DNA from: Candidatus Taenariivivens baikalensis
GTDB lineage: Bacteria > Omnitrophota > Omnitrophia > Omnitrophales > Aquincolibacteriaceae
Assembly (NCBI GenBank): GCA_009691445.1
Contig: SICL01000006.1
Coordinates: 2,486 to 66,485, forward strand
DNA length: 64,000 nt
Direction of reading: 5' to 3'
Part shown: one piece after another, positions 9,075 through 48,246 of the stretch
How the letters are laid out: each line of letters opens with the position of its first letter
Position numbering within the stretch: position 1 is the stretch's first letter
Translations under genes and position numbers: made by a program
The notes under the pieces: model-generated
What the model was told of the DNA's origin: nothing
What the model saw: the letters and a program-made list of their open reading frames with translations, nothing else
Databases searched by the model: none

Positions 9075-9274
9075 GCTGTTCTTTGAGAGGGTGCAAGATC
9101 GCCTAATTTCCTGACCTAGGAAAACGGGAGATGCGTTTTAAGGGTGAACCCCGCAGAAAGCCGAAGGGCTATTGTGGGAAGGGTTACTCTGCAACACTGA
9201 TTGAATGATCAGTACGTCCTTTTTAGTTTTTTGGATTGTCCGAACCCGTGAGCTCATCCCGCAGGCGTGGCAGA

Positions 9275-9327
9275 GAAGCCTTCTTTTATAGTCTCGTAAA
9301 GAGATCATAAAAGAAGGCTTTTTTTTG
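9275..9327 (+). terminator. Rho-independent terminator.
   Basis: agaagccttcttttat...ataaaagaaggct stem followed by a T8 run. Confidence 0.6.
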
Positions 9328-13874: not shown

Positions 13875-16800
13875 GTGACTTCTACACGCTCCTATTTTTA
13901 TTCACGGAAATTTCCAAGAAAATTAATTGCATTTCTGACTGCACTTTTCTTCGTCCTTGAAAGTTTTTTTGTAACCCCTCAGACTTGGGCCGCCGCTGTT
14001 CCTTTCGAAGTTCAAGTACCTGCTTCCCTCGATTTAAAACTTTCTCCTGAACTCGGGACAATTGAATCTCTCAAAACCGGTTCTGGACCGCTCATCATTC
14101 ATATCCAGGAAGCACACGGCAATTATGAAACTCAAAAAAAAATCCAGGGTATTTTGCACTCCCTTCACTCTCAGTACGGAATCGATCGCATTTTGCTGGA
14201 AGGCACTGCCTTTAAACTCCACCCAGAACTCGCCCGGTTTTATCCTGAAAATCCCGCACTGAATGAGAAAGTCCTTGAGGCGCTTGCCAAACAGGGAATC
14301 GCAATTGGTCCCGAACTTTTTCTAGCCAAAACTCCGGAGGCCGAGGCGTACGGGATTGAGGATGTTAAACCCTACGTTGCCAATGGCGTTGCCTTTAAAG
14401 AAGTCCTGATTCAAAAAGAGAAAACCAAAAAGTTCCTCTCACTTCTCGATCAGCAGATCAGAGCCTTCAGTGGAACCTACCTGAACGATCCCCTCCGGCG
14501 TTTTCTAGATCGCACGGCCTCGTTTGAGAATCATCCGGACACCTTGAATGATCCGCTGAATATTTTGAAGCTCCAAGCAAAGGAAAATTTGGCGCTTGAC
14601 CTCGAAAGTCCGCTTGCTCAGTTTGACTGGCCGCAGCTGGTGCGTTTGAATGTGCTCGCGGAGATGGAAGGGAAGTTTGAAGGGGGAGCATTTGCGAAAG
14701 AGAAGGAAGCATTTCTTAGAGCAATCAAGGCTTATACGTGGAAGGAAGAAGGAAGAGGGAAGAAGGAAGAAAAAGAGAGAAAGACTTCTCTTCCTTCTTC
14801 CATCTTCTCTCTTCTCTCTTCTGAATTTTCCACTCCCGCCCCCCCCAATCTCGAAACCCAAATGGAATCCCTTGTTTCTCAGCTTCCGAGCGATTTTGAT
14901 TACAAAGCTTATCCCAACGTCAATCGATTCATTGGTCACAAGCTATTAGCCGCAGAGTTAAAAGGAGATGCGCTGCTCAAGGAAATCGAAATACTCACGG
15001 CTAAGATCACGGACAAGCTCGCCAAGACGAAGGAAGAGAAGGAAATCGTTGAGCTTTTGAAATCGTACAAATTGCTGAAGAAGTTATTTGCGCTGGAGTT
15101 AACGGCGGAAGAATATGAGCAAGTGGTAAGCCGTCGGCAGAAGGCAGTCGGCAGTAAAGAGCCGGAGAAAGGCAGTTCTGCCTACTGCATACTGCCTACT
15201 GCTTTCTTGTCCCGATTCGCCGCTCTCAACCATGAAAATCGCATCAAGGACTTGAATTTTCGAGTGGGTTCAAAAATTGACGCTTTGTACGAAAAGGCGC
15301 TGGAGTTTTACCGTCTCGCCAAAGAGAGGGACGGAATCATGATTAAAAATATCGAGAAAATCCTTCGGTCTGAAACCCGAAATCCTAAACTCGAAACTCG
15401 AAACAAATCAAAAATTCAAAATCAAAAATTCGAAACGACACAGAAAAGCAGTTCCGTTTTAGATTTGAATCACTCGAATTTTGAATTTATTTCGGATTTC
15501 GGATTTAGAGTTTCGAGTTTGCCGAAGGCGGTGGTGGTGATTACTGGCGGTTTCCACTCCAAACCCTTTGCAACCTACTTCAAAGATCACGGCTACAGCT
15601 ACGCGCTCATTACTCCCAAAATGATTTCTACGGAAGGTCGCGAGACTTATGTGGATTTTATTCTTAAGAATTTTTCTCCAGCCCAGACTTCAAATTTTAA
15701 AATTGCACCTAGGGTCATGTCAACACCCTCCGAACTCCTCAGCCTTGGTTTCGGATCAAAAAATATTCAGAGAATGCGATCCGAGGTGAGAGGAATTTCC
15801 AAAAAAGACTACGAGAAATTGGCACACGATGCTCGAGATCCACGTGCGCGCCGAGGCTGGGTCCAGCCAAAGACTTCTGTAACGGGCAGACGGTATCACC
15901 GCCGGGGAATCGGCCAAGCGGCTTTCCGAGACCGCTCTCAAGTTCGCTCGGAGCTCAGGACTCAAGGATCTGAACATTTGCTGGCAGATCGAATGACCAA
16001 AGCTTTGCTTCAAGCCGATCCGGATATATCAGGTCAGGCTGGTTTAGATGTTGCTCATATCAGGGGATCAGCGTCTGCAGGTTCGATTCTGAAGGCTTTA
16101 GAAACTTTGAACACTGAAGAGTTTAAGGCCCTTCGATTGGACCTTAAAGAAAAGTTCGAGCAACAGCTTGCAACGTTTGTGGCTATCAAACCTCATGCGC
16201 TTAAGGAAGAGGCTGCCCTTATTGAGGGATTTGTCAAAGCAGGATTTACGGTTCACCTTGGACCCCAGGTTCAATTCGACGAAATCAAAGCCCGTAATTT
16301 TTACCGGGCGCACGCCTTTGAACCTTTTTTTATTTCGCAGCTGCTTCCCGAGATCACAAAAGGCCCTGCCCGCATTTTGATTCTCGAAAGGGCGTTAGGA
16401 AATGCCGTGGCGGAGGCCCGGAAGGTTGTGGATCAAATACGAAGTGACCGGGGAGTGACGAATAAAGATCCGCAAAATTATGTCCACGCCTCTGATGACG
16501 GCGAAGAGGGATCTGCCTGGCGTGAATCTGGAATCGCGGTTTCAACCTCGGAAGAAATTATGGAAAATATTTCTCAGGCTATTGAGGCGTCAGCTCATCC
16601 TTATGATCAATTAAAATCTGCCCAAAGTCTTGTTGCGATAGGTCAGGTTGACCCTCAAGGAAACGGGCGAAAACTTTTAGAAGGTTTGAAAGTTCCATTC
16701 GGTTTTGATTGGGAGCGCGATTCTGTAGCGGCTAAAAAAATCTTAGAACGTGCTCTCGTCATTCCACAAAAACGATCTGAATTAAGGAAACCAGAAGCAA

Positions 16801-19800
16801 GGCAGGTAAGAAAGAGTAATCTGCAGAGGGATCAGAGTCCAGCTTTGGCTTTGAGGCGGTTGACATCGGTAGGACGGAATATTTTATCTTTAGGATCTTT
16901 ATTCATTTGGATTCTCCGTCAAATTCCAACGTGGTTTTCAAGCCTTGTTACGCGGCGAAATAATTCCGGGACTGCAACTTTCACGGCATCTTCAACACCG
17001 ATTAACCTTGATTCAATCCGATCAAATCTTTCATCGGCCGCAGCTCTCCACTCGCAAAACCCGCGGACTTCACCGGCAATAACGCTTATACCCGATCTCA
17101 GTGATTCAAGTAAAGTTCCCACTTCTGTTGGTGTGTACATTTTATTTTCATCGTTGTTTAGCATGGTTCGATCCTCCCCTATTTTCAAATGGGGGCGTAG
17201 TCTACTTTCACTTCAAGGAGCTGTCAATATTAATTTTAGTCAATTTTTAATTCCTTATGAATTATATTTAAGAGCTGGTCGCTCCGAGGTGCGGCAGGGA
17301 TGGAAAGACACTTTGTTTCAGTTTGGACAAACCGTTGATTTATCATCCGTTTCAGGGGAACGGATTGCATCAGTTTGGAATCTGAGCACTCATTATGCAC
17401 TTAAGTTTAGCACGACCCTGAAGCAGCTTGGAGAAGGCGCGATTTTTCGACTATTCTTGGATGATCTGGATAGAACTGACGTTATCTTGGAGCAGGCTAG
17501 AGCTGGGGGAATTACGGACGCTGTTCATTTCAGAGAATTTCAGGATCCTGCCCTCCGCTTGGCTGCTATGTCCTATCTTGTTACCGGAACGGTGATGTCG
17601 CGAGAAGAAATGATCAGGCGGTTTGACAGTAAAAGGCGTACGAATCAGGATGAATATAACCTTGCAGGAGCACAAGTAGCCTTGGATACCATCCTGAACG
17701 CATACCGGGATGAAAATTCATTTGTATTTAATGACCATCAAGTAAGAGCTTTCGGATTGGAGTTGCATCAATTGAAAGGAACAGAGCTGAACCCCAGTTT
17801 CGCCAAAAGACTTCTTAGCCGCGCCCTGCATATCGTCCTTGATCCAATACCCCGCTCTGAACTTCGGATGACGGGAACGCCGAAGCTGAAGAACATTATT
17901 CCGACCCCGACTTTTTTCATGAAAGACGCAAAGGGAAAAATCATTGTGAAGGAAGCGGCGGTGAGGGCTCACATGAGATATCTCAAAGATACGTTGCACG
18001 GCGAATACATCCTCCCAGCCGGAGCGACGGGGGAATTCCAGAAAATGAATCCGGAGTTGAGACGCAGTGCGATTGAGATTACCACTCGCGAAGCCAAGGC
18101 CGTCGGACTTATCACCTTTACGAATGTGACGGGAGATGATGAAGAAGAAACCATCGGAAATGCGCTGGCCGCTCAAGCGGCAGGTGCGAATTTTCTTGTG
18201 ATTGCGGCGCTTTATTTTTTGGAGAAATCGTCGGACATCGAAGCCTTTATCCCGAAGATGAGAGAGCTCGGTGTCACGCTTCCACTCGCGCTGTACAATA
18301 ATCCCGGGCTTCCCAAGATTCAGGCTTATGACAGTACCCGCGAAAAGGAAATTACTTCCGATGCTGTAGGGGATTTATATCGAAAAGAATTGATCTTTGC
18401 CATCAAAAATTCCGGAAGCGCAAAACTGACCGAAGAATATATCAGGACCGGAACCCCGACCTATATTGGCGATGAAAGCGCGCTGGACACGGCTTCCAAA
18501 ATTAGAGGCGACAAAGGCGAATCGCTTTACGGCCTGGTCGGTTCCTCGGGAAATTTTATGGCAATTTTCCAGCGCATTGCGGAAACCAAAAACGACGAAG
18601 TTCGGGCCGCGCTCCAGGCAATCATCAATAAGATTCGGCCAACCCTGATTGCACTTAATTTAGATCCGACTCGCGGCCCTCCGCATAAAATTGCTCAAAT
18701 TATCAAATATCTGCTTTCAAAAAAAGATCCTGTGATGAGCGATGATGTTTCACTGGACGGCACCCCCGCGCTTACAGAAGAGGAAATTACGGCCATCAAT
18801 GCCATTCAGCCTCTTCTAATGACTTTTCCTGAGATTCAATTTCAGACGAATGTTGAGTCGCCGTTTATGAAGCTGGAAGGGGGCGATTCTATCGACTTAA
18901 GAGGATTGGTAGGACAGTTGACCGAGTTTCGGGATCGCTTGATAGAAGGTTTGGGGAAATGGGGGAATAAAAAATTATTTATTGGAGTCAGTTTTCAGAA
19001 AAAAGGCGACAGAGAAATCGAAATCTATGACACGACTTCTCAGGGCCTGATCGCGACGATCAACGCTACTCACTATAAAGTTGGGTTTAAACTTATCGCC
19101 GAAACACTGAATCCTTATCTTCTGCCGCAAAATTTCTCAGCGCCTTCTGCTCCAGCTCCCGCCACTCGTTTGGATTCCGCAGGCCCTTCAGTTCCGAACG
19201 CCGCCGTCACCGAATACCAAAAACTTTTTAATGACCTTACGGGGTCGCTTGGAAGCGGTTGGGATATTACAAGTGAGAATGGGCATTGGCTCAAAATTGC
19301 AGTTCCTCAGGGCGGGACGACGGATCCAGCGAATCCTGCCTTTGTCGGCTTTGCTTTGAATTTTGAGCGCGAGATCTTGTTTGGCTGGGGTACGTTTCGT
19401 GTCCACTTTTACCCTAAAGAGGGAAAACTTGCCGGTATTGTTTATCGCGAAGGAAAATTTTATGCCGTGGGAGATTTTGCTTCGCAGGATCAAAACCAGA
19501 TCTTTGCCTTTTTAAATATCGAGGAATATCGTGCAGCTTCTCATAGCTATACCGAACTTGCGTTCCTTTCATCCCGGCGCTCGGAATTGCGGATGAATCG
19601 ACATGCTTTTCTTAAAAAGGCTGCCGTGGTAGCGACGGGGATATTATTTCTACCAAAGACCCCATCATTGGCGGATTCTCCTCGTGTTTTACCTCCCATC
19701 CGGCTGATACCGAGTTTGAATCCTTTTCAGCCAGAACTTGATGGTTTGATTGACGCTGCCGAAAAAATAATTCCACGAAAGTTGGGTGCAGGTTTTCCGG

Positions 19801-22800
19801 TCATCAGGCGTATCCAAGAGGGCGAGTATCGTGCAAAAATTTTATTTTTGAGCGGAAATCTTTCTTGGGATCTTAAACACCTGAAGCAGATGCTGGCGGA
19901 CTTCTCCGGGCAAAGTCTTGCCAAACCCGAGGATTGGCTGATCCTGCCCGAATTTTTACGGCATTACCAGAATGTGACACTGGAAAACTTCCACGGACTT
20001 CCCCACGAGGTGGCTATTCTCTTGGCTCAAGCAAAAAGAATTCCTATGCAAGACCCCTTTGTCTCTATCCTGCAGCCAGAAACAGTCCGGAAAATCCTTG
20101 CCGAAGCCAAACGCCGGAAGCTGGACCTGAGCCGCGAAGAAATCCTCGCGTACCTTCTTATTTCCTGGACGCAGGGAATGCATCCTGTTTCCTTTGGGAA
20201 TAATTCTGTGGCTCTTGCCATCCAATTTTTAAGGGATGCCTGGAAGAAGGAAAACGATGCTCCCGGTGTTCAAGAGCTTTATGAGGCGGCGGTTTCGTTT
20301 GTGAAAAAAATGAATGATTCCGAATTTAGGGTAAAGATGAATCGGATTAATAAACTCAATGCCGAGTTTCTCCAAAAAAATCCCAAAGCCAAAGACAACC
20401 TCGCTTGGGAGTGGGGAAAGCATTACCTTGCACTGGGGGAAACTAAATCTTTCACGCGGGAGGAGCTTTTAGGGCATTGGGTGATTCATACGGCCCTGCA
20501 GCAATTTAACGGGAAAATTCCTGACTTTATGGAGGGGATGATCATTCTTATGGAGAAGGGCTGGAAGGCAGCTGGAGTTTCCTACGAAGAACTCCATCGA
20601 GGCTTCCTTGGGTGGATGCCCAAAATTGGCCAGAGAGATCTTTCCCTGAAATCTAAAGCAGCGGAAGAGCTTGTCCTGGAGACATACTCACGCTTGACCA
20701 AATCCAGCCTCGCAGCAACTTTATCCCGAAGCTCGGCGAAGAACGTTATTGCTCTGCTTCATGCCCCGCCGGAGGCACGTGAGGGCATTGAAAAAGTTTT
20801 TCAAGAGCATTTGCAGCGATTGTCTTCCCAGCGTCCGGAATTGCGTTTGGGGGCCCCACGTTCCGAATTACGACAAAACCGGCCGCCCTTTGGATCGTTT
20901 CACGAGTTTGTGGAAAAGCATGCGGTGAAAATAGAGACTCAAAACAGCTTGATGGTATATGTCGGGAAAGGAAAGGGGAAGGAAGATTCCAAAGAAATGA
21001 CGGAGTGGGCGGCGGCGCGTGCGCTGATTGACGCGAATATTGCTCACAATAAATTATTCGGTGTAGACGGTCAGAAAAAGCGCTTTGTCGCGGTGTTTGC
21101 AACGGGAAGTACCATGATCGGTATTTACAAAAAAGTAATTATTCTGGCCGATCAGCATGAAGAAAAAGAGGGGATTGATTTTTCTACCGCGCGTTCTTAC
21201 AACCTCGATGAAAATGGGGGGCTCGCCCCGGACCACCCGCAAAGCTACCGCTATTTCATGAACCACCACTTGTTTAACGGGTTAACCGAAAGAATAAAGG
21301 AGAAAGCGTTCAGCCTTGATCACACCTATGTTTTTCCCGGAAATTTACCGCCAGCGGAGTATCCCGCCGAGTTTGAGCGCGTTCATAAAGAAATCGAGAG
21401 TTATGGAGGAATTGATTTTCTTTATCTGGGAAGCGGAGAGAACGGCCATTTTGGATTTGTGGAACCGCCTTATTTGATTAACCTCGATTTTGCTGAGTTT
21501 CTTCTTAAAAATCCAAAGCAATCGCTCGATGCGCTTTTTACTGAGAAGCCGGATGAATACCGTTTTCTCCGGGATTCGAATGATTTCATCCTTGAGAAAA
21601 GTATTCAGGGCGACTCTCGTGCGCTTACCCAACGCATTTTGGATTTAAGAAACCAGATCCGGGGAGCCCTTCATGAAGGACTTGAAAAAGGAGGAAGAAA
21701 TGGCGATATGGCTCAGGATTTTCGGACTGCCCGCGGAAGATATTATGAGGAGGAAGCGTCGAAAAAAAGATTCAAACTTGCGGCCAAGTGGTATCACACC
21801 AATTCGTTTCCGGTTAAAATTAAAGCGGCTTTAAAAAAATACGGTCGCCGCCTTTTACACGAACAGATGACGACGATTTATTTTAAGGAGGGCTCTGTAT
21901 TGGAGAACCTTCGAGAGCCGATGGAACTACCAACCGTCCAGTTTAAGACATTGAAGGAGCTTTTTGCTACCCCGGCCAAGCTCTCCTTTCTGAATGCCAA
22001 GACGCCCATTGTGAATTCACGTCTGGTCGAAAATTTTGATACCGTTCCGCTTTGGGCTCCCACCATGGATGGCGGGCTTGTCTTCAGTGCCAAGAAAATT
22101 ATCCAAGTGATCACGGGGCCTATGAAAACGGATGCGGCCTTGAAGATTGTGACAGGACCGGTTTCTCATGATGTCCCCAGCTCCTATCTTCAATTAATGC
22201 AACCCGGATCTACAATAATCCTTCTCGATCAAGCCGCCGCGCAAAAAATCCTTCTCTACCAAGCGAGCCGTTCGGAAGTGAGAGGGGACGTATCCAAAGG
22301 GGCTTCCGAGGAAATAATAGCGAAAAGTGTTTCGGTGCTTGAAATGTTGGATGCTAATTTTCGCTTGGTCCAACGGGCGAATGAATGGCTGGTTCATAAT
22401 AACGAGCTGTTTCCAACGAAGTTGCTAAGATTCAAATACATGCATCCTATCAAGGGCGGAGTTAATATGGCTCAGCGTCAAAAAGGCAGATGGCTGGCCC
22501 CAGAAATTACTCAGGGATTCCGCCGTGCCAAAGCAGAATGGGAAGATGGAGTTCCGAAAGAAATTTTCGAAATCCTCCCCTCCCAAAAGCTCAATCTGGA
22601 TGCCTTGCTTGAAAATATCGAAGCGTTGTTTTCAAGGAGATTTTTGAGGAGTTCTTCCGCTCCAAAATGGTTCAAAGAATTCAGCGAAGTTGTCAAGGCG
22701 TCTGCAGACGAAAAGATTGTTGAGTTGGTTAGCGTTGAAAGATCGAGCGAGGATGAGGCTAAGAGAAAAGTGGCAGCTGTTCTGCTTAAAATCAAATTTG

Positions 22801-25800
22801 ATTTACTCGGAATTGCCCAAGAGAAAGCCATCCAGGCATATAGAGCTTTTATGATGAACGACTATGAAAATGCGGCTAAATTCATAAAGGAAGCTCAAGA
22901 AGCGAGCGATGAAGGACAAGCTAAACGCTTAAAGCGTCCTCCGCAGGAACCTCTTTATAATAAGGACGAGGCAATCAAAGAGGCTTTCAAGTCCGCTCTT
23001 AAAGCCCTCGAGAAACTCCAAACCCGTTCGGAAATGCGGAGCGTGTCGATTCCAGATGCGGTGGAGGGACTGAGGCCTGCGATTGCGGAAACGGAAGAGG
23101 TTTGGGGCGGGCCAATGTGGAAAAAAGACGAACTGTTTGATTTTCTAAAACAAAGTCTAGAGCCGGGCCGTAATCCCATTCAAAATAAAATAGTTTCGAT
23201 TTTTGTTCCCCGGGCCGTGGTTCCCAATGAAGCACGGATGGGTCTGACTCCGGCCGGCGTTAAAATCCTTCGAAAGCTTGAAGCCCTTCTGCGAAAAGTA
23301 GATCCTGAAATTCAAATTAAAATTTATGTGGAAGAAGGTTCGGGAGTTAACCGCGACACGGGTGAGACTTATTATTCTGATTTTAATTACAGCCTCGAAG
23401 GAGCTGTTGTGTTGCCTTATGGAGTGTTTGTTGACAAAGCGGGTGCAGTGGGGCCTCATAAAATCGTGGTCGATATTAAGGAGCCGCCGCCAAGCGCGTT
23501 TCCCTTTCTTAAAGACGCTGTTTTATTTACGTTCCTGCATCCTGCGAGTTCTAAAAAAATGACTCAAAAACTGCTTAAGACTGTGAGAGCCGGCTTTGCG
23601 TATGAGAGTATTTTTTTTAAAAACCAACGTCAAGTCGCCAAAGTTCCAATTTTGGATCCGGCCAGCCGCGCGGCAGGTAAGGCAACGGCGGTTCGTTATG
23701 CATCGCTTGTCAAATACCGAAAGGATCATCCAGCCAAGGAGCTCACGGGTTTGGCTTGGCTCGCGGATAAGATCAAATACCTGTTTCTTTTCGTTTTTAC
23801 TTTTGGAAGGGTGAGAATTTCAGAAAGTGATGAGGTTGAGATAATCTTCCGCGAAAATATGAATTTGAAATCGCTAGAGGAAATGAAAAACCTCCAAGGA
23901 ATTCTGGACGGAAAGACGGTCACCATCTTGGGCGGAGGAATTGTCGCTGAAGAAGCGATGCTTTATTTGTCTGGGTTCGGAGCGCGGGTTTATGTGACAG
24001 AGGTCGAAGAAGGACGCAGACAGGAATTAGCCGAACTCATTTCGGGCAAGGAATTGCAGGAAAAGATTACGGTTTTGACCCGGGGAAATCCTAAGCAGCC
24101 GATTGAATTCGAGACAAAAATTAGAGACGCTCTTGAAAACTCCAATGCAATCATTGGAACCATTTCCATTCCTGGTGCCCGCACGCCTATTGAAATCACG
24201 CGGGCTCTCTATAAGAAACTAGTGTCTAAAAAAACGCTGGCAGTGCGAGACGAGAGTAACCATCCCGGAGATGGTCAAGCTAATGCTGAGTTTGCTCGCA
24301 AATTGGAATTTGTCGGCGTGCCTTCGATCGATCAAGGCGGGGATATTGAGGGAGCGCGTCCCGCAAAATTTAAACACGGATGGCTGCGTGACTGGTTTGG
24401 AGTGATTTGGTTTGCGGTGACCAATATACCGTGCGCAGGAGATCCCAGAGAAACTTCTGAAAAAATGCAATTGGCCAAGATGACCTACCTGACACTGCTT
24501 ATTCTAACAGAATTGATGGGTGAGAAATTTTTGCTCCAGGTATTTCAGAAATTTCCGGAAATGAAACCGGGGATGGTGATGCTGCGCGGACATTTGACGA
24601 ATGCCAAGGTCGCTGCTGCTCTTCGTCTGCCGTTTGTCGCGCCGGAGCCCCTCATCGGCTCTCCGGTTCGCTCCGAAGTGCGGTCGTTGAATACCACGGG
24701 GGCGATTCCGGATGCCGTTCGATTTAGCGACTTCCTTCTAAGATTGTTGCCGGAAATCACGAAATCTTTTTCCCGCCGCTCGGAAGTACGTTCTACCGGA
24801 GTGACGAAGCAGGATATGGCTCCCCTGATTTTTTCCAAATTGCTTAAAGGATTTGTGCACAGAACCCAAGCCGAAGCGGGTGACGGAGCGGTTTCTTACT
24901 CGGTGATTCCGGAGAGGGCTGAATTTACGCGCTGGCTGAATATTCAGCAGGCACGAGCCAGTGAGGAATTGATTTTGAAGGGACTGCAAAGCATGGAACG
25001 GGCTGGGGTTTATCTTTATGATGGAATCACGTTGGAAGAGCTTGAGAATCAACACAAATATTATCTGGGTCATGCAACGTCGGTGATTCTTATGACTCTT
25101 GGAGCCGCACTCGGGTTCTGGCGCGTGTTAGAAAACCAGTCTCTCGAAAATGTTCAGCTTGAAAAGCTTGGTCTGGCTACAAACCAGCTTGATTCCTTCG
25201 CAGTTTTTTTAAGGTCTTTAGGGGAAATCTTTAATAAACAGATTTTGCCTACGGGAATTCAAGGGCGTGCATTAGCTGAACAAATGAATGAGATACTTGC
25301 GCGAATGGGGTCTCTGACGCGGTTTGATGTGAATGATCCCATTCACCCGCTTCCTTCTCCGCTGAAAAAAACCCCTATGCCAGAAACGGCGGCGGTTATT
25401 AGTCCTGTGATCCGCATTGAACTTAATGCTGAAAATTATCGCGGTAAAACGGTTCGAGAATTTCTGGATGCATATAGTCCGAAAATTATGTCACAGCTGC
25501 CCGAAGGTTCTGAGTTGTACGGATTTAATACTGTGAATATTGCAGGAAGGATCGTATCGGGTGCTAACAAGCTTGAGTACCAAATCACGGGAAAGAAATT
25601 GGTTTTTTCCTATCCAAATCAAAAGGCACGCTCCGAAGTGCGTAGCCTGTTAGCCCGCGAACCGGTGCACCCGTTAACCAGTATACCGGGCATGGACGAC
25701 GTGAGTTTTTTGACACTACTTAAAGGATTTGATCGCCTCACGCAAGCGGAAGCGGGTGAAGGAGCCGTTTCTTACTCTGTGATTCCGGAGAGTCCTGACC

Positions 25801-28800: not shown

Positions 28801-31800
28801 CAATTTTTCATGGGAAAGATTTCCAGGAGGGAGTGTTTGTTGAGGGACGCATGAGAGAGGGAAGGCGCGGCGCATTAAAAGAAGCCGGCTTCAACGGAGT
28901 CTTCCACCGGGAAGGCGAATTTTATGTGGGAATTGAAATGCAAATTGATTCAAAGACGGCGCTCATAAAACCAGAAAAGATTCGTGCCATTATTCAAAAG
29001 AAGGATGGCTGGTTTGTTGCCTGTGAAATTCCCTTGATGCTTTATTCTGACGCCGCCAATTCCAAATTTTTTTCTGATTGGGCGGATATTATGGCGAAGG
29101 CGCTTCGCAAACTCGTGCGTGAACATCCACTGGAAAATCAGCCTTATTTTGAGGGCAAGTTACAAGAAATCTTTCCTCCGGCAGTGATGCTGCCCTTTCC
29201 GGAGAGTATGTCTGCCCGCCCGCAGACTTTTCCGGAACAAGTTGTGAGCGACGCGTCTACGATCGAAATTGCTCCCGGATTTTTTGCATTCATCCACGCC
29301 GAACCTCAGGGAGGAGAATACGATCCTTGGACTAGAAGGAGAATTCGGCCAACCCATTATGAATATTCTGTCCGATTCAAGGATCATTTGTCTCGCGCGG
29401 TAGAAAAAAAAGGTTACAACATAAGAGACCGCAGGGAAACGGTTTTGGGTTATCAAGTCACAATAAAGCCGGGAGATAATAATTCTTCTGCCAAAGTCTC
29501 AGCAGTCAAAACTGTGGGACCGGTCGAGGTTCAGCTTTTGGTGGATGGCTCAGAGAAACAGCCAAAGAGGGAAATTCCACCCATAAAGATTAGTTCCCTT
29601 CAAGTGAATCGGTCCAATCCCCAGGATGCTTCCATTTCTTTGGAAGGGAAAAGCATCGCAATAGGCGAGACACAACAAATTGGGCGTTTTGACATTTATT
29701 TTAAAGGCTATGCCCAATCAACTATCGAAGGCGTGCCGCCCGCCGTGATTTTGATCATCCTTCCGCGTTCGGAAGTGCGAAAAGGGTTAGCCGGTCAGCG
29801 AGTGAACCTGCCAACGGATTTAAATCCCGGGCACGCGATTACCCGGTCACTCGTTAAACCGGATCGGCGGTCGGAAGTGCGATCCACTCCGCTGGTTTCA
29901 GATCAAAGCAGGGATGTCTCCAAGGCTTTTATTCCTCAAGCCTTTAAACCCTTTTATTTTTATGATCGGGAAAGAAGACCCTCCGTGGAGTCTCAAGTCC
30001 CTGCTTCAGTTTTTCTTTTGGATCCCAGGGTTGATGCCTCGTTAAATAAAAACGAAGCCCACGGTGTTTTTCTCAAGCTAAAATCAAAGGGAGACCGAGT
30101 TTTGATTTATGATTATCACGTCACGCCAAATCCCTATGGCCAAACGGCTGAAGAAATTTCAAATCGTAGTGCTTATATCAACCATCTGGAAGTGAACCTG
30201 GATGAACATGGTCACTTGGAATCATTTATGATCCACAAGGGAGACCTGAGCCGCCACAGGCGTCATCCCTGGATTTTTGGAGATGTGGAAGCGTGGTTAA
30301 GTGCCCAGAAAGGAAAGCCATTCAATATTTCGAATCCTGAATTTCCGAAACAGATTCAACCCGGTGCAAGGAGATTGCCCGCAGTTCCGCAAGCGGGCAG
30401 GGTCAGGACGATGGACGCTAAAAATCCTAACTGGGTTACTCCTGAAGATAGTGGACTTGAGCTTCTCGTCAGCCGATTGGGAGATCCCGCGCAGCCTGTT
30501 GTTTTCAATCGTCTGCAGCAAATGCAGGAAAAGATTCTTGAAATGGGACCCGTGGCCTGGTCGTTTTTACTGGATCTTTATCCCTCGTTTACTCGCCAGC
30601 CCAAAATCCAGCAGGAAATCAAAATGATTCTTCTTCAGGCCGGACCCGCGGTTATTCCGGTGCTGCAAGGCTATATTGATCACCGCAGAGAACCCCAGGC
30701 AGTTTTGGCAACGGAACTCTTGCATCAGATCAATCCATTTATTGTCGACGATCACGCCGAATCGCCCATTGCACATATTTCTGAAATGAATTTGCCTCTT
30801 CCCTCGAATCTGGAACCCGCGAATTTGATTGTACTCGGAGGAATGGGAGCTGTTGCCCAAGTGTTTTATGAAACGCACATGAAAGCGTTGGCCCAGCGTT
30901 ACGGAGTGACATTGACGGCGGTGGACCTGATGCCGCAGGATGCTGCGCTCGCAAGAATCAAGGCTGAAAACCTTCCTTATCAAACTTACATCCAGGTACC
31001 GAATCGTCCATTGAACGGGCCGGAAACAGATTTTATGAAACAACTTCTAGCTCAGAATCCCAAAGGGGTTTTGATCCTGACCCGTCCCAACTCTCATCTG
31101 GATTTTACAAGATGGGCACTGAATAACGGGATCAAAGCTTACGTGGAAAAACCTTTTTCTCTTCCCGAGGACACTGTTACGATGGCAAAGCTTCACGAAC
31201 GGTTTGAACGGGCTATTTTTGCCATCGATTTTTTCTTTGATAATGAATCGGCCTTGAAAGGTTTTGAAATGTTGCAATCCAATTTCTTCGGAGATCTTGT
31301 TTCTATCAAAGGCAGCATGATCGAAAGCAATCTCATTGAAAACGGCAGAGGCTGGCTTGTGGACCGAAAAATCAATGGCGGAGGAATGGGGCCGGACATG
31401 CTGGTCCATTTGGTCGCGTTAGCGGAACTTCTTTTGACCAAATTCAAGCCATCTTCCGATCCTTCCCGGCATTTAAGTCTTGAGCAGTTTAAACTGGATT
31501 ATCAAAAGAGCAAACAGTGGCGTTACCGCGGAGCACCGAAAGGCCAGGAGACTTACCTTCATGCCATCGGAAATCTTGGACATGTTCCCGTGGATTTAGA
31601 TGCCGGCAAAGGCCTTCATGAGTGTGCGTATTTTATGATCCTTCAAGGAACCAAAGGAACGCTTGAGATTAATCTTGGAAATCACAAGAAAAATCAAAAA
31701 CCTTTCTTGGAACTTCGCTCGCGCAGCGGAGAAATTGTCTATCACGAAGATTTTGGAGCGGATATCGGTTACGCGGGTGCGGTCCGGAAAATTTTTGAAC

Positions 31801-34800
31801 ATCTTCAAGACCAAAAAAGGCCAGATGGAAAGCCGGCGGTCTCAGATCGGGAGCTTGATTTCCGGGTGCGTGCGGTCAAAACCTCCGTGGATTTGGTAGA
31901 TAAAGTAAACGGCGCGCTCGGCGGCGAATTTTTTTATCATAATGCCGGGCAGAATCCCGCGGAACTTTCGGTGCCTGAAAGAGTGGGGGAACGGGCAAAC
32001 CGTCTGATGCCTCTGCAATCGAATCTGATCAATCCCGTGACCCGCGAAAAAATGCAGATTCGCCGCCAACCCGGAGGAGACGCCTACCGTCATTATTATG
32101 ATTTGTACCGATCTTCGCAAGGCGATCTGCGATTCGAGGGAGTGACGATACAGCTGCTTGCCGACTCGTTACTGGTTGATAACTTAAAAATTCCTGCGAT
32201 TCAAGGATATCGGGAAGACGGTTATGCCATTCCCATTTTAAAGTGGGCGCTCGAGCTTGCCCAAAAAATTTATCCGGATTCAGAGTATCCTTTACTGATT
32301 TCTCAAGACGACGTGACGATGCTGCCGGTGCTTGACGGTATTTTTGACCCGGCGTCGATTGAGCTCCGAAATAATATGGATGGAACCTGGGGGCATCTCA
32401 AAGATCCAGCCTTCAATTTGTATCATATTTTCGGAGGTTCTTACAGCCGTGAGCCCAAAGACGAGGGCGCGATTATTCTTGCCGACCCTCAGTCTTATTT
32501 CCCTTTGGGAACGGCCCAAATCCGTAAGCAGGGTGAAAATTATTTGCTTGTTTCTTCAAGTCTTCCCGCCGCCTCCATAAAATTTCAAGGGCCTTTGATC
32601 CGGGCTTCTTATCGAGGAAAGCCGCTGCGCATTATTTTCCCTCATCAAACGATGGCGATTCGCGGTCTCCCTAAAAAGTGGGATGCCGACGCGGCCGCGG
32701 TCACACGCCGTTTGGAATTGCCGGCAACACTTGCTGAGATTAATATACTTATTGACGGAGGGAACATCGTCGATGCCATTCGATCATTTACGCGCAGTAG
32801 AGCCTCTTTAGATTCTCAATCTGTGAACATGATTGCCGAGCGTCTCAGGCAATCTTATTTGGATCCGCTTGTCGTTGTAGGGAAACTGGGAGGCACTTCG
32901 ATGGCTTTTGAGACTGCGTCTCCCTACGGACTTCTTGGATACCGCAATTCATCCCCGACAATCACGAAACCGGACAAAGCGGATACAGCCGTAGAAGTGG
33001 TTGAACGGATCGTGAAAACGATTTTGGATGTGATGAAGCCTTATGTTGAAGAAGATCCCTCAGCAATCAATCGATTTATGGCGATTCGTTTTAGCGCACC
33101 CGGTTATTTTGATTCGGAAGGAAACCTGATCGAGGATGAAGAAAATATCCCAAAAATCAAGGCCGGATTTAATTTCAGCAAGGAAGTTTTTCAAGCCTTA
33201 ACGAGCGCGCTTCAAAGGAAGGGATGGACCCGCCACGAGTCTCTTCCTCCGATCGAAGTCACTGTCGAACATGACGGGACAGCCGGAGCACGTGGGGAAA
33301 TCTCCGAGTTTGGGACTTTTCCAGGTGACGGCGATCTTTTTTTTCTGATCGCAGGCACAGGCATCGGAAGCAGGCGCTTTAAGGATGGAAAACCTTTTTT
33401 TGGGGATAAGCGCGTTCAGGGGCTGGCGAATGAAGGTCCTCATCACCTCCAGTTTAATGAAAGCAAGGAGCATCCGGATTTTGCTTACCGCGCTCTTCAA
33501 ACCCAAGGCTTTCCTATTAAACGGTTCAAACCGGGGCATGCCCGGCAAATCCGGGTTCCAAACCTTGAGGAAATTTTGCAGTACGGGCCTCATTTGATTG
33601 ATCTTGAGGATTTAACTTCCGGACCCAATATTGAAAAATATGCCGCGGAAGTTTTGAGAAAATTTAATCAGCATAGCGAGCATAACGCTGAAAAAGCTGA
33701 GCAACGAAAACTCGCTTTCGATATTTTAAACGAAGTCGGCTTCAATTTTGAAAGTGTTTCCACAAAACTGCTTGGAGAAAAAGCCAGAGCCGGAAATACA
33801 CTTGCCCAGAGAATCATTCGGCAAAGGGCGCGTTTGCTTGGGATTGGTTTAGCGGTTATGTTGGTTGAACAATATAAAGTCTTTGGAGCGGAAGAATTCG
33901 GAATTCCGAAGCATGTGATTCTTGGGTCCGGAGTTTCCCAGCTTGGTTCTGTTTTTCTGGATGCGGTCCGGGAAGGTTTTAAAGAAAGGCTGGATAAATA
34001 TTATACTGCCCGTCAGGAATATACCTTTGACCCCCATAGGCAGATTGTTCTTTCCAAAGTGATGGACGACACCGGCCGTGAATTTTACGGATTTCTTCCC
34101 ACCCCAACCGAAGCAGCGGCCTACAAACAAAAACTCGGATCTCTCTCACGTTCTGAAGCGCGGATGGATCGACGCGATTTTATACAATCCTTTATCGCTT
34201 TGACTGAAAGTGCTGTCTCTTTGGGCGCGGCCTTGGGTATTAGTTATTTGATCATCCTTCCGCGTTCGGAAATGCGAAAAAGGTTAGCCGGTCAGCGAGT
34301 GAACCTGCCAACGGATTTAAATCCCGGGCACGCGATTACCCGCTCACCGGCTAACCCTGACAGACGCTCGGAAGTGCGGGCGGTCAATACGGAGGGAGCG
34401 ATTCCGGTCAGGTCGTTTGATCTTTCTGCAAACCCCTCCAGAACAACCGAGGCAGGACTTTATCTGATCCGGCGTTTAGGATTACTCCAGACTTCAGTGG
34501 TGCCGCTTTTCCAAGCTATTCTAAAGAAAGAGGATCCCGATCCAGCCGTGGAACTGCTTGTGACAAGCCGGGAAGGTCTTTTCTTACAACCTCCCTCTGA
34601 TGAATTTATGACGGTGAGAAGGTTGAGTGGGCGCGATTCGCTTTACCGTCTGGATCTGAAAGATAAAACCATCACGCCTTTGACCTTTCCCGGCGTGTTA
34701 AATCCTTTCTCTGACGGAAACGGAAAACCCTTTGCACCGCTTACGCCTTTTCCTGCGGAACAAGGGGCTGTGCATTTTGCCCTTGTGGATAGAGATCTCA

Positions 34801-37800
34801 AACTCTGGATTTTGAATCCTTATACCGCGGCAGTCGTCAATCACGATTTAAAACTTCTTGCCGAACAACGGCACAAAGTTGTTTTGGATCCTACAAATCT
34901 GGATTCCATAAGTATCCGCCAGGCTTCAAGTGAAAATCTGATGGTGGTGATTCGCCCGACAGTCAAGTTGTGGGACACTGCCCCAAAATGGCCGATTCCG
35001 CTTTATTTTTCCGCAAGGGATGGAAGTGAATTACCGAGAGATTCTGGATATAGCCCTGACGGTGTTGACAGGATTTATTTATGGAGACCTTTGTACGACC
35101 AAGCGCGTCACGATCTTCGATCCCGTTTTGATTCCGGGAAAAAGGATATTTCCGTGACCGTCCAGGTTTCTGCGCTCACGAGTTCTGCCTTAGCAAATCA
35201 TCTTTCTGTGGAATGGCGTGCCCCAAACGGCGTGTGGGTGGAGGGATTTCTTCCGACTGCGTCCATTCCCGGAGCCTCAAAGGCTCATGAAAATCTTCTT
35301 TATCAGAATCTGAAGGTTTATCCAGGTAAAATTCATAGCGACCATTTTGTTTTTTTTACCGAAGGGCCTAAATCCGAAATTGCGAGTGAATTGGAAGCGC
35401 TATCGTCAGGTCAAAGGACGGCACCCGCCATTCCACCGCGCGTTTCTCCTTTTTATGAAAGTGAACCGGATTTTAGCGTCCACTCTTTTTCCAGAGAAGG
35501 TTATGAATCGGCAGCCGCTTCTCAAACCAACGAAGGGGTTTTAGCGGAATTGACAGATGCGCTCAATCAATTTTCGAACCGGGTGATTCTTGTCGAAGTT
35601 ATCGGAGCTTCGTTTAAAGGAAATGGTTTGAATGTGATTTATCAGGGTGTGCAGGGATTTATTCATAAAAATCATTTAAGGGGATCAGTAAGTGACTACC
35701 CGCGTGGAAATCATATTTCTGTTTGGGTCATGACGGTTGACCGGACTCGGAATCCGTCCCGGCCGTTCGTGCAGTTTTGTGAAGTCCACCCCCGTTCTGA
35801 AGTGCGGAATTCAGGGGTATCACCGCAGTCCGATAGTGATGGAGTTTACCGGGAATTACAAGCAATGGATGCTTTGGGTCTGGATGACCGGCCATACCTG
35901 AGTGTGCAAGTCCTTGGAGTGAGTCGAAGGGGTACGGGTGTAAATGTTGAATATAAGGGAGTACCAGGATTTATTTTATACAACCTTCTTAAGAAACCTG
36001 TGCGTGAGTATCATCCTGGAGATTTCATTGATGTAATTTTTCACAGTATGAAACAGTTGCGGAATTCTTCGCGTCCATTTGTAGAATTTTGGGAACGCCA
36101 GCAGGAAGGAGGATATCGTTCCGAAGTACGCTCCGAAGTGCGCAGCCTGTCAGCCCGTGAACTGGTGCACCCGTTAATCGGTACACCGGAAACCGGCGCA
36201 CAGGCTAACCGGAATACGCGTTCAGAAGCGCGGATGGATCGACGCGATTTTATACAATCCTTTTTCGCTTTGGCTGAAAGTGCGGTCTCTTTGGGCGCGG
36301 TCTTGGGTATTAGTTATTTGATGATCCTTCCGCGTTCGGAAGTGCGAAAAGGGTTTTCGGGACAGCGAGTGAACCTGCCAACGGATTTAAATCCAGGGCA
36401 CGCGATTACCCGGTCACCCGTTAAACCGGATCGCCGATCGGAAGTGCGTTCTGCTTCACCAAAGCCTCGCATCCTTGTCATTGAAGTGAATGCTGCCTTG
36501 TATCGAGTGGCGGAGAAAAGCTTCGGCGAAGTGTTTGAGGCTTTAAAGTCAGAAATTGAAAAAAAGCTGCCACTTGGCGTGAATGTTGGGAATTTCGTTT
36601 CGATGACAGACGGTAATGTCGTTGTGATGGGTAGCAATGATTTGCTTGTGCGTCAAAGAAATTTTTCTAATCCATTTGGGGGCGCCAAACTGACAGTTCG
36701 CTACGCAGATCTTCGCTCGGAAGTCAGGAGCTTAGGAATCCATTCGGCAACGCAGATTGTTCCTCATCTTGGAAAGTTTGATGGAGCTTTGACGGCAAAC
36801 GTTAACCACCACTCTCATCGGCACTCTGATGATCATATCGCTCTGAAAGACGGCCGGTTGATCACCGTTCTGGTCGATGATGAGCCGTATAAAAGATCCA
36901 TTGATTTGACTTTGACGGACCCTGACGACTTAAGCAAACTCTACGTTAAGGTTCGCAAGGTTGAACAGGCGGGTACGTGGGATGTGTTATTAGCTGACTT
37001 ACGGGAAAATGTCACTTCGATGATTAACAAGTCTGATTCGCTGGGTGAGGTTGCGAAGAGCCTGACGGCACTTAATCTCGCACGTTATCAATCCAAGCAG
37101 AAGTCTATTCTCTATGTGGGGACGTTTTATCAAATAGATGAAACCCTCCGGCCATTTGCCTTAATGATTAAGGATGGTTTGACAGAAAATCAACTGAGGT
37201 TCAATTTTAATTTTTCGAATCGAATGATTGCCGATGAAAATGTTTCGAATCCCTTAAAGATTCCATCGATGTGGAGTACGGAGAGTGTTTTCAAGATCAA
37301 GTTGAAGGTCAGGGAAGAAAAGATTTCGTCGGGTAAAATGCCGGTACTGGCTATTATGCGATTAAAAGCACCCTCTTCTCATTTGTCAGATATCCGGGCA
37401 CATTTACAGCAGCTGGGAATTCAGTATTTGATGCGGGCCGAAGTTTCTTATGCCGACGGCACTAAAATAGATCTGGAGCCTCAGGTAAGGGTGGCCAGCC
37501 TGGAAGCCTTGCGGAATTCTCCTTTTGATTCAAGTGTCCGTAAAGTGCTGGGGCAGTTGAAAGGGTTGCGAAGTCTAGCGCTTGCGGCAAGAAGCGGCAG
37601 AACTGACGGATCACTTTTGGATGGATTGGAACGTTCTGAAATTCGGACGGACTTGCCCGTTCAAGAATTTGAGGATCAGGGGCAGTTGATCAGCCGGATT
37701 TTCCGGCAGGGGATTGTACCGCTGGTGAAGATGGGCGAGGCCGCCCGTGCGTGGGTGGTAGCTGTTTACGGAAAAACGAAGACGACAGCGAGGGAATCGT

Positions 37801-38423: not shown

Positions 38424-39589
38424 GAAGAAACAAAATTTTTAATTAAATCTTTCAGAGAAAGTAAATGGATGGACATCACACCGTGCTTCTGGATATAAGA
38501 ACGATCAATATTTGAGCAGACAACAAAGTTTTTCCCGTGAGGATACTGACGTCGGAAAATAAGGATATTCTTCGGATCAAGCCCGTTTGAATTCCATTTA
38601 CACTCAATCACTGTCGGGGGTTGGTGCCGGCTGGCCAGAATGAAGTCGATTTCGTGACCCTGCTTATCTCTCCAATAGCGAATGTCTCGAGTTTGAAGAT
38701 GGGCTTGAAGTTCATTAAGGACATAATGTTCCCAAAGCAGTCCCAGATCTTCATTTCGGAGATCATTCCAGCCCTTGTGATAAGAAACGAATCCGGTGTC
38801 GAAGGCGTACACTTTGGGTGCGGCAATAATCTCATTCGATTTATGAGAGTTAAAGGGGCGGATCACATGAGCGATCAGGGTTTCTTCCAGAACTCGAAGA
38901 TAATTTCGGATGGTCACACGGCTTACTTCACATTCTGCCGTAAAACGGGTGGCTTCAAAAATTCCACCGCTTCTTGCCATCACTAATTCCGCGAATCGCT
39001 GAAAAGAGTCTCTTCGATTGAGACGGAAGAGATCCTGAATATCTTTCGCCCAATAATCATCAAGCCATTCCTGAAAGTCTTTTTCCGGAATCTTGGTGTT
39101 GAGAAAGAAGGGCGGTAAACCTCCGAAGCGCAAACGATGCGTTAAGTCTGATTGAGGGAAATGAGCCAGATCTTCCTGGATCATCGGAGTTAACCATAAG
39201 TTTGTCTTCCGGCCTGTCAAGGTATCACGGAATTTTCGTGAAGCCCCTAAGGTGGAAGATCCCGTGGCGAGGACTTTTATTTTTGGGAAATGATCGGCGG
39301 CGATTTTGAGTAATTCAGCGGGAGCCCGGAGGCGGTGAATTTCATCCAAAATAATCCGGTGTCCGTCAAGAGAAGTGAGAAAACCTTCAGGCTCGGCCAT
39401 CATTTGGCGGGTACGGGGAAGTTCACAATCGAAGTACTCGATTTGATCAAGGGTTTGAGTCAGGGAAGTTTTGCCTGATCTTCTCACTCCCGAAAGCCAG
39501 GTGATGGAACGGTGTTCCCAGGATTTTTCAATTAAATTGATCCAAAAATTTCTTTTGACCAAGGGTTCCATACGATTGAACACTAGCAT
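38420..39589 (-). CDS. AAA+ ATPase with a DUF4143 C-terminal domain (AAA_14 family). Convergent with the giant ORF and overlapping it by 4 nt.
   Basis: Walker A LSGVRRSGKTSL near the N-terminus and a Walker B-like RIILDEIH. Size (389 aa) and overall pattern are typical of the PF13173/PF13635 family. Confidence 0.7.
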   Translation of the reverse strand: MLVFNRMEPLVKRNFWINLIEKSWEHRSITWLSGVRRSGKTSLTQTLDQIEYFDCELPRTRQMMAEPEGFLTSLDGHRIILDEIHRLRAPAELLKIAADHFPKIKVLATGSSTLGASRKFRDTLTGRKTNLWLTPMIQEDLAHFPQSDLTHRLRFGGLPPFFLNTKIPEKDFQEWLDDYWAKDIQDLFRLNRRDSFQRFAELVMARSGGIFEATRFTAECEVSRVTIRNYLRVLEETLIAHVIRPFNSHKSNEIIAAPKVYAFDTGFVSYHKGWNDLRNEDLGLLWEHYVLNELQAHLQTRDIRYWRDKQGHEIDFILASRHQPPTVIECKWNSNGLDPKNILIFRRQYPHGKNFVVCSNIDRSYIQKHGVMSIHLLSLKDLIKNFVSS

Positions 39590-41629: not shown

Positions 41630-41643
41630 ATACCAAAAATGTA

Positions 41644-41760
41644 ATAACCAAGATACAAGAAACAAGATACAAATAAAGATACAAAAAAACAATAAACCAA
41701 TCTTTGAATTTTTGAAATCTTGTTATTTATTTGGACACTTGTATCTTGTCTCTTGGTTAT
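41644..41760. repeat. Intergenic heptamer-array hairpin element, copy 2 of 4, between cusB-like and cusA-like genes.
   Basis: ccaagatacaagaaacaagatacaaataaagatac ... tttggacacttgtatcttgtctcttgg. Confidence 0.6.
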
Positions 41761-41773
41761 TCAGGACGTGGTT

Positions 41774-46521: not shown

Positions 46522-46573
46522 GGTGAAAGGATTTTATCCTGTTTTACCCTATGCTTCCGTTTAAAGAGGTTTT

Positions 46574-48136: not shown

Positions 48137-48246
48137 GGATGGTTCTCAGGCACGGCCTTAGCAAAGAAAAAGTGGTTTGAACATTTTCAATTATTCTTTC
48201 TTGTTTCAATGGCGGGTGATGCGAACCGTCCCGGGCAGAAAAACTT

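Follow-up and report, generated by a model that had tools for sequence, protein, structure and literature searches.

The window analyzed here, a stretch of 64,000 nucleotides (nt) from Candidatus Taenariivivens baikalensis (Omnitrophota; contig SICL01000006.1 of assembly GCA_009691445.1, positions 2,486 to 66,485 of the forward strand), carries two giant genes on its plus strand. Giant gene 1 is a single uninterrupted open reading frame (ORF) from 13875 to 38423 that encodes 8,182 amino acids (aa); giant gene 2 starts at 61588 and leaves the window at 64000. Each encodes a Sec-type signal peptide at its start and, behind it, a domain of ~550 aa; the two domains are homologous (21 to 24% identity). 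This report concerns the pentapeptide R-S-E-x-R, which recurs in both proteins, the domain that precedes it, and the role that the two may play together.

The giant genes and their recurrent pentapeptide

The translation of gene 1 contains 28 RSExR pentapeptides, every one in frame. The original prediction, made from the sequence of the window, had placed at least 28 copies with V, L, M, I, or A as the fourth residue between 15775 and 37650. We found 27 such sites there (V in 16, L in 6, M and A in 2 each, and I in 1); the 28th RSExR is RSETR at 15366 to 15380, upstream of that range. The positions given for individual sites were correct to within 2 to 4 nt (RSEVRG at 15777, the tandem RSEVRSEVR at 36117 to 36143, RSEVRS at 36714, and RSEIRT at 37632). 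RSETR is probably not a true site, since it lies inside a palindromic low-complexity insert in the N-terminal domain and the sites of relatives almost never fall within that domain (2 of 940 sites precede residue 500). The remaining 27 sites were accepted.

This recurrence is far from what chance would give: residue composition predicts 0.19 sites for gene 1; in 500 shuffles of its residues no more than 3 sites arose, and 300 shuffles of its codons yielded 0.21 on average and never more than 3. Across the whole window, the remaining five reading frames held 0 to 2 matches apiece. Counting the degenerate DNA pattern that had been proposed for the motif gave 28 matches in gene 1, all in frame 0, and a single match on the minus strand of the window. 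Two motifs had also been claimed for the second large gene, and both are present in frame: RSEVR at 63715 to 63729, which forms the first boundary of gene 2 shortly past its N-terminal domain, and RSEAR at 63808 to 63822, which forms the second. In gene 1, the edges of the pentapeptide are sharp and the adjacent columns are unconserved. The third codon positions vary (CGC, CGT, CGA, and CGG for Arg; TCC, TCG, TCT, and TCA for Ser; GAA and GAG for Glu, with GAA dominant), and the last Arg is specified by both CGN and AGR codons.

The accepted sites divide gene 1 into ~28 modules (29 segments if RSETR is included), and the pieces between motifs are 4 to 1,427 aa long. The chain begins with a Sec-type signal peptide or anchor (RKFPRK-LIAFLTALFFVLESFFV-TPQTWA/AA; 13875 to 13997), which was identified by a hydrophobicity scan and has an equivalent segment in 41 homologs, and continues with the TIKI/TraB/ChaN-like domain (13998 to 15776). 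Immediately past that domain lies the first true boundary, RSEVR at 15777 to 15791, in a position that fits the family median (residue 617). Here begins module 2 (15777 to 15944), a 56-aa highly basic peptide unlike a globular protein. RSELR at 15945 to 15959 then opens an NDK-like module, which keeps the NxxHxSD active-site pattern at 16476 to 16496, and at RSELR (16773 to 16787) module 4 begins (16773 to 17279), which is rich in Ser, Leu, and Arg, is also unlike a globular protein, and resembles a wrong-frame translation that has been kept open. After RSEVR at 17280 to 17294, RSELR at 17853 to 17867 precedes a Met and the native-like N terminus of a DHDPS-like module, RSELR at 19578 to 19592 precedes a Met and a signal-peptide-like segment (MNRHAFLKKAAVVATGILFL), and RSELR at 20859 to 20873 opens a glucosamine-6-P-isomerase-like module.

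Beyond RSEVR at 22269 to 22283, an AlaDH/PNT-like module is opened by RSEMR (23025 to 23039), a 36-aa mini-module by RSEVR (24669 to 24683), and the paralogous modules 12 and 13 by RSEVR at 24777 to 24791 and at 25629 to 25643, respectively. RSEVR at 26832 to 26846 is followed by a decayed motif, RSEVQ (27741 to 27755), which stands before a degenerate copy of a 34-aa module, and by RSELR at 27843 to 27857. The first of three intact copies of the 34-aa module begins at RSEVR (29766 to 29780), and the next site, RSEVR at 29868 to 29882, opens the 1,427-aa module, which has Gfo/Idh/MocA-like and sugar-kinase-like parts. The original prediction had put a motif before the Gfo/Idh/MocA domain; a motif does open that module, but the wording was loose, since the domain begins ~380 aa further in. 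RSEAR at 34149 to 34163 is followed by a module resembling a twin-arginine (TAT) signal (34164 to 34262), RSEMR at 34263 to 34277 by the second copy of the 34-aa module, and RSEVR at 34365 to 34379 by the stretch leading to RSEVR at 35793 to 35807, which opens a 108-aa module that is S1-like by sequence reading only. The tandem RSEV-RSEVR (36117 to 36143) consists of overlapping sites at 36117 and 36129. A second TAT-like signal module (36234 to 36332) comes after RSEAR at 36219 to 36233, and the third copy of the 34-aa module after RSEVR at 36333 to 36347. RSEVR recurs at 36435 to 36449 and at 36714 to 36728, and the last boundary, RSEIR at 37632 to 37646, is followed by a 258-aa C-terminal module.

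The prediction that the motifs fall between modules was borne out. The internal paralogs (modules 12 and 13; 16, 19, and 25, the three copies of the 34-aa module; and 18 and 24, the two of the 38-aa TAT-like module) align motif to motif; the degenerate fourth copy of the 34-aa module is the one preceded by RSEVQ. A Pfam scan of gene 1 detected five domains, each within one module and none split. The Pfam and PDB signals were weak but specific (NDK, DHDPS-like, glucosamine-6-P-isomerase-like, the N- and C-terminal domains of AlaDH/PNT, and Gfo/Idh/MocA). Met stands directly after the motif in four pieces, one of which reads on like a native DHDPS N terminus and two of which open with MDRRDFIQSF and a hydrophobic stretch, a TAT-type signal. 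Several mini-modules of 30 to 38 aa are flanked by motifs; short peptides would result if these sites were cut.

The N-terminal domain and its family

The original prediction had called the N-terminal domain Tiki/TraB-like, and its fold and active-site pattern agree with this. The domain has the alpha/beta TIKI fold with a parallel beta-sheet core, and it carries the two His, two Glu, and basic residue of the TIKI superfamily, as judged by a match of sequence pattern rather than by superposition. H84, E112, E187, R460, and H488 (in GGFH) are invariant in 41 homologs, and position 82 is Asp or Glu. The corresponding putative catalytic residues of gene 1 are E79-x-H81 (14109 to 14117), E109 (14199 to 14201), R485 (15327 to 15329), and H561 (15555 to 15557); gene 2 (61588 to 64000), with its own signal peptide and TIKI-like domain, has QDAH84, E112, R460, and GGFH488. 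The essential residues of RRSP, a sequence-specific endopeptidase of the TIKI family, are E3900, H3902, E3930, R4001, and H4030, and Bcr135 uses H85 and E113 (PMC6254334). The order of these residues and the 28-residue spacing from His to Glu are identical in our domain, Bcr135, and RRSP. RRSP demonstrates that a TIKI fold with two His, two Glu, and an Arg can act as a sequence-specific endopeptidase (PMC6254334), and from this pattern we infer that the N-terminal domain may have peptidase activity.

In gene 1, an imperfect low-complexity palindrome (15366 to 15530; arms at 15387 to 15399 and 15508 to 15520) lies in frame between Arg485 and His561. This insert of ~165 nt, which contains the doubtful RSETR, is absent from gene 2 and from the other homologs, and DNA of a similar type ('aaatccgaaat') also occurs upstream of the minus-strand gene at 51008 to 52351. 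It is probably a small repeat element that the Omnitrophota tolerate within ORFs.

A scan of one genome per GTDB species found the N-terminal domain at 71 loci, nearly all in metagenome-assembled genomes of Candidatus Omnitrophota. When a profile of the domain was compared with 1.84 billion representative proteins, 9,125 matches had an E value of ≤1e-3 and 5,513 of ≤1e-30, counted as clusters at 50% identity. In the best 150 of these matches the domain is always N terminal, and the proteins reach 7.8 thousand aa (kaa). Motif-rich giant ORFs end just upstream of the gene for the domain, in the first 3 to 10 kb of the locus, at five loci (L004, L007, L059, L061, and L066), which indicates that giant genes often stand in tandem; the N termini of these upstream ORFs fall beyond the edge of the loci analyzed.

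Downstream module content is not conserved between related loci. BLASTP comparison of the 29 window modules with the large ORFs of the 71 related loci gave no match outside the N-terminal domain; the short modules (34-aa, 38-aa TAT-like, 36-aa, and 56-aa) likewise had no relatives there, and the C-terminal 1,424 aa of gene 1 had no homolog in a search of a 5.8-billion-protein set. A module-by-module alignment of orthologs was therefore impossible, and conservation of the motif itself was examined instead. R-[S/A/T/P]-E-x-R proved to be the most overrepresented gapped pentamer in most of the long ORFs of the related loci (239 sites in 36 ORFs). ORFs no shorter than 1,500 aa carried it at 0.99 per 1,000 aa, compared with 0.04 in open segments of 150 to 600 aa; permuted controls gave ~0.01 per 1,000 aa, and KSExR, RSExK, and RSDxR were near zero. 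In an independent set of 151 family proteins (440 kaa), there were 996 sites, or 2.26 per 1,000 aa versus 0.03 for permuted controls, and the motif was the top pattern in 85 of the 115 proteins of at least 1,500 aa. Across the family, K for R and D for E are essentially absent. ORFs with the N-terminal domain carry 1.30 sites per 1,000 aa, whereas other large ORFs of the same loci whose N terminus lies inside the locus carry 0.11. The motif residues are kept between clades whose N-terminal domains are only ~20% identical. As the original prediction had anticipated for orthologs, the motif is conserved at module boundaries and only in frame across a very large family of Omnitrophota giants, where it keeps out of domain interiors and accompanies the N-terminal domain in cis.

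Some lineages carry variants, which occupy the same kind of position as RSExR. Locus L067 uses RAExR (10 sites); L003 (MHFO01000043.1, ORF from nt 9968), whose N-terminal domain is 40% identical to that of gene 1, uses LSD[S/A/T]R (11 sites); and in L015, L016, L018, and L020, a clade that includes Omnitrophus fodinae, the motif is replaced by [G/A]-[A/S]-S-L-G. Residue 4 is always Leu in L047 and L009, where every site is RSELR, and mostly Ala in L048.

The surroundings of the sites are also characteristic. Upstream of the motif, Pro, Ser, Ala, and Gly are overrepresented, and aromatic and acidic residues are underrepresented. Directly after the motif (position +1, or P1'), Ser (2.7-fold), Thr (2.3-fold), or Ala is favored, Pro is reduced to 0.35-fold, and Phe, Tyr, Trp, and His are below 0.3-fold. 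The median position of the first site is residue 617 (interquartile range, 579 to 650), immediately past the N-terminal domain, and the median spacing between sites is 216 to 258 aa, the size of a protein or domain. Pfam gave few matches in six motif-rich relatives, and no domain was split by a motif; the strong matches used were acetate kinase, glutamate dehydrogenase, GH2, and cupin. In protein P0114, a complete acetate kinase (E value, 8e-115) lies between RSEMR and RSESR, with linkers of 17 and 50 aa, and RSEAR is followed by a module with a canonical TAT signal (SRRDFLRTAALATAGFFLL...ARA) and a GH2-like barrel. P0048 has a complete Glu/Leu/Phe/Val dehydrogenase between two sites. With a pattern-based detector, a TAT-like signal was found within 30 aa after 21 of 981 sites, compared with 2.6 ± 1.5 (maximum, 7) for random positions, and half of the 42 internal TAT-like segments fall in postmotif windows that cover ~7% of the sequence. 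The bracketed acetate kinase, the TAT signal with its GH2 module, and the Met with its DHDPS start indicate that the modules behave as whole proteins with their own N termini.

Proposed cleavage of a polyprotein and other readings of the motif

On balance, we lean toward the view, drawn from these sequence patterns, that the motifs mark where a bacterial polyprotein is cleaved, perhaps by the TIKI-like domain that it carries itself. The giant ORF would be a polyprotein in which many complete proteins are translated as one chain, and R-[S/A/T/P]-E-[aliphatic/small]-R, set in a Pro/Ser/Ala-rich linker, would be recognized by a sequence-specific endopeptidase, which would thereby set the modules free. 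The chain would probably be severed directly after the second Arg (RSExR↓S/T/A/G/M, with the arrow marking the bond), since such a cut would leave native-like N termini (Met and TAT n-regions) on the downstream module and fits the small, Pro-depleted P1' position. Motif variants that are specific to lineages and genomes form a pattern like that of viral polyprotein sites. As the protease we propose the TIKI/TraB-family domain at the N terminus of the same protein, itself the first module delimited by the motif; it is the leading candidate because it is the sole component conserved in cis and no neighboring gene is conserved. A dedicated neighboring protease was rejected, as no upstream gene family was common to more than 4 of ~45 loci. 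We infer that the chain may be cleaved, and likewise the bond that would be cut, the enzyme that would cut it, and the compartment (cytoplasm, periplasm, or prey cell).

Several points weigh against this interpretation. A protease role for the N-terminal domain is not guaranteed, since the TIKI superfamily comprises not only proteases (Tiki and RRSP) but also esterases (Ere) and the heme binder ChaN. There is, furthermore, a paradox of topology: since the family N terminus resembles a Sec signal peptide, an extracytoplasmic TIKI-like domain is expected, whereas the TAT signals and such modules as acetate kinase, glutamate dehydrogenase, and NDK point to release in the cytoplasm. The motif type tracks the genome and not the similarity of the N-terminal domain, as L003 (40% identical to gene 1) has LSDSR while gene 2 (24% identical) has RSExR. 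In the window, another site follows the TAT-like module after 38 aa, and cutting there would separate the signal from its cargo, unless that cut is signal-peptidase-like. Pro occupies P1' at a minority of sites (3 of 11 in L003). Finally, the codon bias at Arg1, Ser2, and the codon 4 wobble, set out below, hints at an additional nucleotide-level or ancestry effect.

The giants are also almost free of Cys: there are 7 in the 8,182 aa of gene 1 (0.086%) and none in the 804 aa of gene 2, and the family average is 0.075% (151 members), compared with 0.88% in the 22 other genes of the window. Together with the Sec-type N terminus, this tenfold depletion suggests export of an unfolded chain. A wider reading, which we offer tentatively and consider possible rather than probable, is that the Omnitrophota possess a very large polyprotein family, with operons fused into one ORF, in which an N-terminal TIKI-family endopeptidase cuts at R-[S/A]-E-x-R or its lineage equivalent and releases dozens of proteins; the products would have different destinations and include cytoplasm-type enzymes, TAT-exported enzymes, and short peptides. 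On this reading, the modules might even be released after the unfolded, Cys-free chain has been delivered outside the cell or into prey, and a cellular organism would be using a virus-like strategy of gene expression on a large scale.

The alternative that survives best, although we regard it as unlikely, is that the motif is recognized but the chain stays uncut. The motif would then serve in the linker for docking (of modules with each other or with the N-terminal domain), for hand-over to a chaperone or translocon during export, or for modification, and the giant would be one multi-enzyme scaffold. The strict residues, the linker position, and the family-wide conservation fit this alternative equally well; tenfold Cys depletion behind a Sec signal suggests unfolded export of the whole chain, and in a 2026 preprint proteins of this kind are regarded as single polypeptides that carry 'multi-enzyme metabolic clusters'. 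However, TAT signals and native-like Met starts right behind the motif make little sense in a chain that is never cut, and the small P1' residue and the depletion of Pro look like the signature of a scissile bond. Modules of cytoplasmic and of exported type share one ORF, and mini-modules of 4 to 38 aa are hard to see as units of a scaffold.

A signal in the nucleic acid, in the form of a ~15-nt word (CGY-TCS-GAR-NNG-CGN) used for in-frame module recombination or cassette exchange, mRNA processing, or internal initiation, appears improbable. It was assessed through the codons of 237 sites in 36 ORFs, and part of that evidence favors it. Arg1 is CGY at 81% of sites, versus a background of 47% before TC-codons; Ser2 is TCN at 95%, versus 68%; and codon 4 ends in G at 59%, with Val being GTG in 69% of cases, compared with 25 to 31% in the background. 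GTG, ATG, and TTG make up 40% of codon 4, and in L067 the 5' half of the word is nearly invariant (CGC GCG GA). Duplicated modules start and stop exactly at the motif, and the unconserved module content suggests rapid shuffling. The codons of Glu3 and Arg5, however, are at background (GAA, 66% versus 60%; AGR, 25% versus 24%), with switches between CGN and AGR, which argues that the residues have long been under selection; many different codons occur at position 4. The GASLG variant takes its Ser from both the AGY and TCN families, a pattern that only amino acid selection explains, and substitutions that are similar at the nucleotide level (K and D) are excluded. The claim that conservation lies on the peptide and not on a DNA word is thus mostly true, given the varied codons, but must be qualified for the first Arg and Ser, which favor CGY and TCN. 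Ancestry or gene conversion could account for the bias at Arg1, Ser2, and codon 4, as could a secondary function of the nucleotides themselves, for instance in providing microhomology when modules are duplicated.

Specific forms of a nucleic acid signal were also tried and rejected. An RNA hairpin (C3-G12 pairing) showed no covariation, and RNAalifold found no consensus structure at 26 window sites. Inverted or shufflon-like sites are ruled out by the single minus-strand match in the window, and the conserved core of 9 nt is short for a recombinase site. Neither a Shine-Dalgarno-like sequence nor an internal start is indicated: no GGAGG precedes the postmotif Met, the ordinary genes of the window lack the word upstream, and GAA is preferred to GAG.

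That the motif is a historical scar, a leftover of gene fusion without present function (for example, a linker cassette copied at each capture and homogenized by gene conversion), is highly improbable, for although the codon bias in the 5' half and the genome-specific flavors (all RSELR in L047 and L009; RAExR in L067) are to be expected from concerted evolution, and one decayed copy (RSEVQ) is present in the window, five residues have been kept across clades with ~20% identical N-terminal domains while flanks and modules diverged beyond recognition, the randomized wobble of Glu3 and Arg5 shows long-term purifying selection on the residues, and the conservative replacements K and D are excluded.

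Known systems and neighboring genes

Giant ORFs are a recognized hallmark of the Omnitrophota (Seymour et al. 2023, PMC10066038). West-Roberts et al. (2023, bioRxiv 10.1101/2023.11.21.568195) suggested that N-terminal C39 or S8 domains carry out autoproteolysis and wrote that the cleavage points are unknown, and giants of the 'multi-enzyme metabolic cluster' type have since been described (bioRxiv 10.64898/2026.06.07.730766). These three papers are silent on both a recurring motif at boundaries and an N-terminal domain of TIKI/TraB type. Gene 1 resembles the published giants in that it comes from the same phylum and many unrelated enzyme-like domains tile one ORF; it also has the attributes of a multi-enzyme metabolic cluster (an Omnitrophota host and many Pfam families), but its 8.2 kaa lie below that study's threshold of 10 kaa and, more generally, below the published size cutoffs of 10 to 30 kaa. 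A full-text literature search for RSEVR returned nothing relevant, in agreement with the earlier statement that no described bacterial system uses the motif.

The proposed cleavage between modules has parallels elsewhere. In MARTX toxins, as far as the account in PMC6254334 goes, a variable cassette of unrelated effector and enzyme modules is freed by an in-cis protease that cuts the intermodule linkers. The likeness to the giants extends to the large size of a bacterial protein with unrelated modules and to a TIKI-family effector, RRSP. The MARTX processing enzyme is an internal, inositol-phosphate-activated cysteine protease domain that cuts after Leu. Gene 1 is not a MARTX toxin, since a Pfam scan of its 8,182 aa found neither such a cysteine protease domain nor the N- and C-terminal RTX/glycine-rich repeats of these toxins and it has only 7 Cys; the giants also differ in their motif, in their far greater number of modules, and in their many metabolic enzymes of housekeeping type.

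Viral polyproteins, such as those processed by picornavirus 3C, potyvirus NIa, and flavivirus NS2B-NS3 ([K/R]R↓[G/S/A]), hold many mature proteins in one ORF and have a short junction motif with a small P1' residue that varies between lineages, and the protease lies in the same chain. The giants are similar in that a recurrent short motif falls exactly at unit boundaries and varies by lineage while its position is kept. They differ in being a chromosomal family of cellular bacteria, with a protease candidate of another fold. Bacterial surface polyproteins offer a further comparison: gingipain and adhesin precursors of Porphyromonas are cut after Arg or Lys, and the P97/P102 proteins of Mycoplasma hyopneumoniae are cut at S/T-X-F↓X-D/E in disordered regions. 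As is proposed for the giants, these bacterial precursors are cleaved at short motifs that recur in disordered linkers; however, they yield few fragments, carry only adhesin or protease cargo, and lack R-S-E-x-R, the TIKI domain, and the operon-like enzyme content.

Three other processing routes were ruled out. For C39 double-glycine leader processing, Pfam found no C39 match in gene 1 and the motif has no Gly pair. For kexin- or furin-type dibasic processing, taking the final Arg as P1 puts the first Arg at P5 rather than P4, P2 is aliphatic, and K is not tolerated. For 2A ribosome skipping (D(V/I)ExNPG↓P), the motif is different, and the 'DLNPGH' of the 34-aa module, which is specific to the window, is without the essential Pro.

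Whether the giant ORFs of the Omnitrophota, which reach more than 100,000 codons, act as single proteins or as cut pieces is explicitly an open question in the field. A family-wide boundary pentapeptide supplies concrete candidate cut sites and a candidate enzyme with named catalytic residues, and it offers a way to divide 'dark' giants into parts that can be annotated and submitted to structure prediction. Should cleavage be confirmed, the giants would be the first large gene family of a cellular organism with a virus-style polyprotein strategy for ordinary metabolic enzymes and would provide a new pair of sequence-specific protease and site, with possible biotechnological use.

The giant genes have PEGA, GT2, AAA_14/DUF4143, and RND efflux genes as neighbors in the window. 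The AAA_14/DUF4143 ATPase gene (38420 to 39589, minus strand) is convergent with gene 1 and overlaps its stop codon by 4 nt, and the same convergent arrangement occurs on three other metagenome contigs (ERZ1305449, SRR8561390). A fused gene for MbnB/TglH/ChrH (DUF692, an MNIO that modifies ribosomally synthesized and posttranslationally modified peptides) and DUF2063 (59680 to 61383, plus strand) lies directly upstream of gene 2; a link between it and the giants was ruled out, since it is not conserved beside related giants and the giants are almost Cys free. Elsewhere in the window, a CusB/HlyD-AcrB-type efflux pair spans 40574 to 45049, and genes for a ROK-family kinase, a Ppx/GppA phosphatase, and a polyphosphate kinase are clustered at 45484 to 50322. 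A full-length c-di-AMP riboswitch (Rfam RF00379, 54 bits; 9090 to 9282, plus strand) precedes a pirin-like gene at 9635 to 10342.

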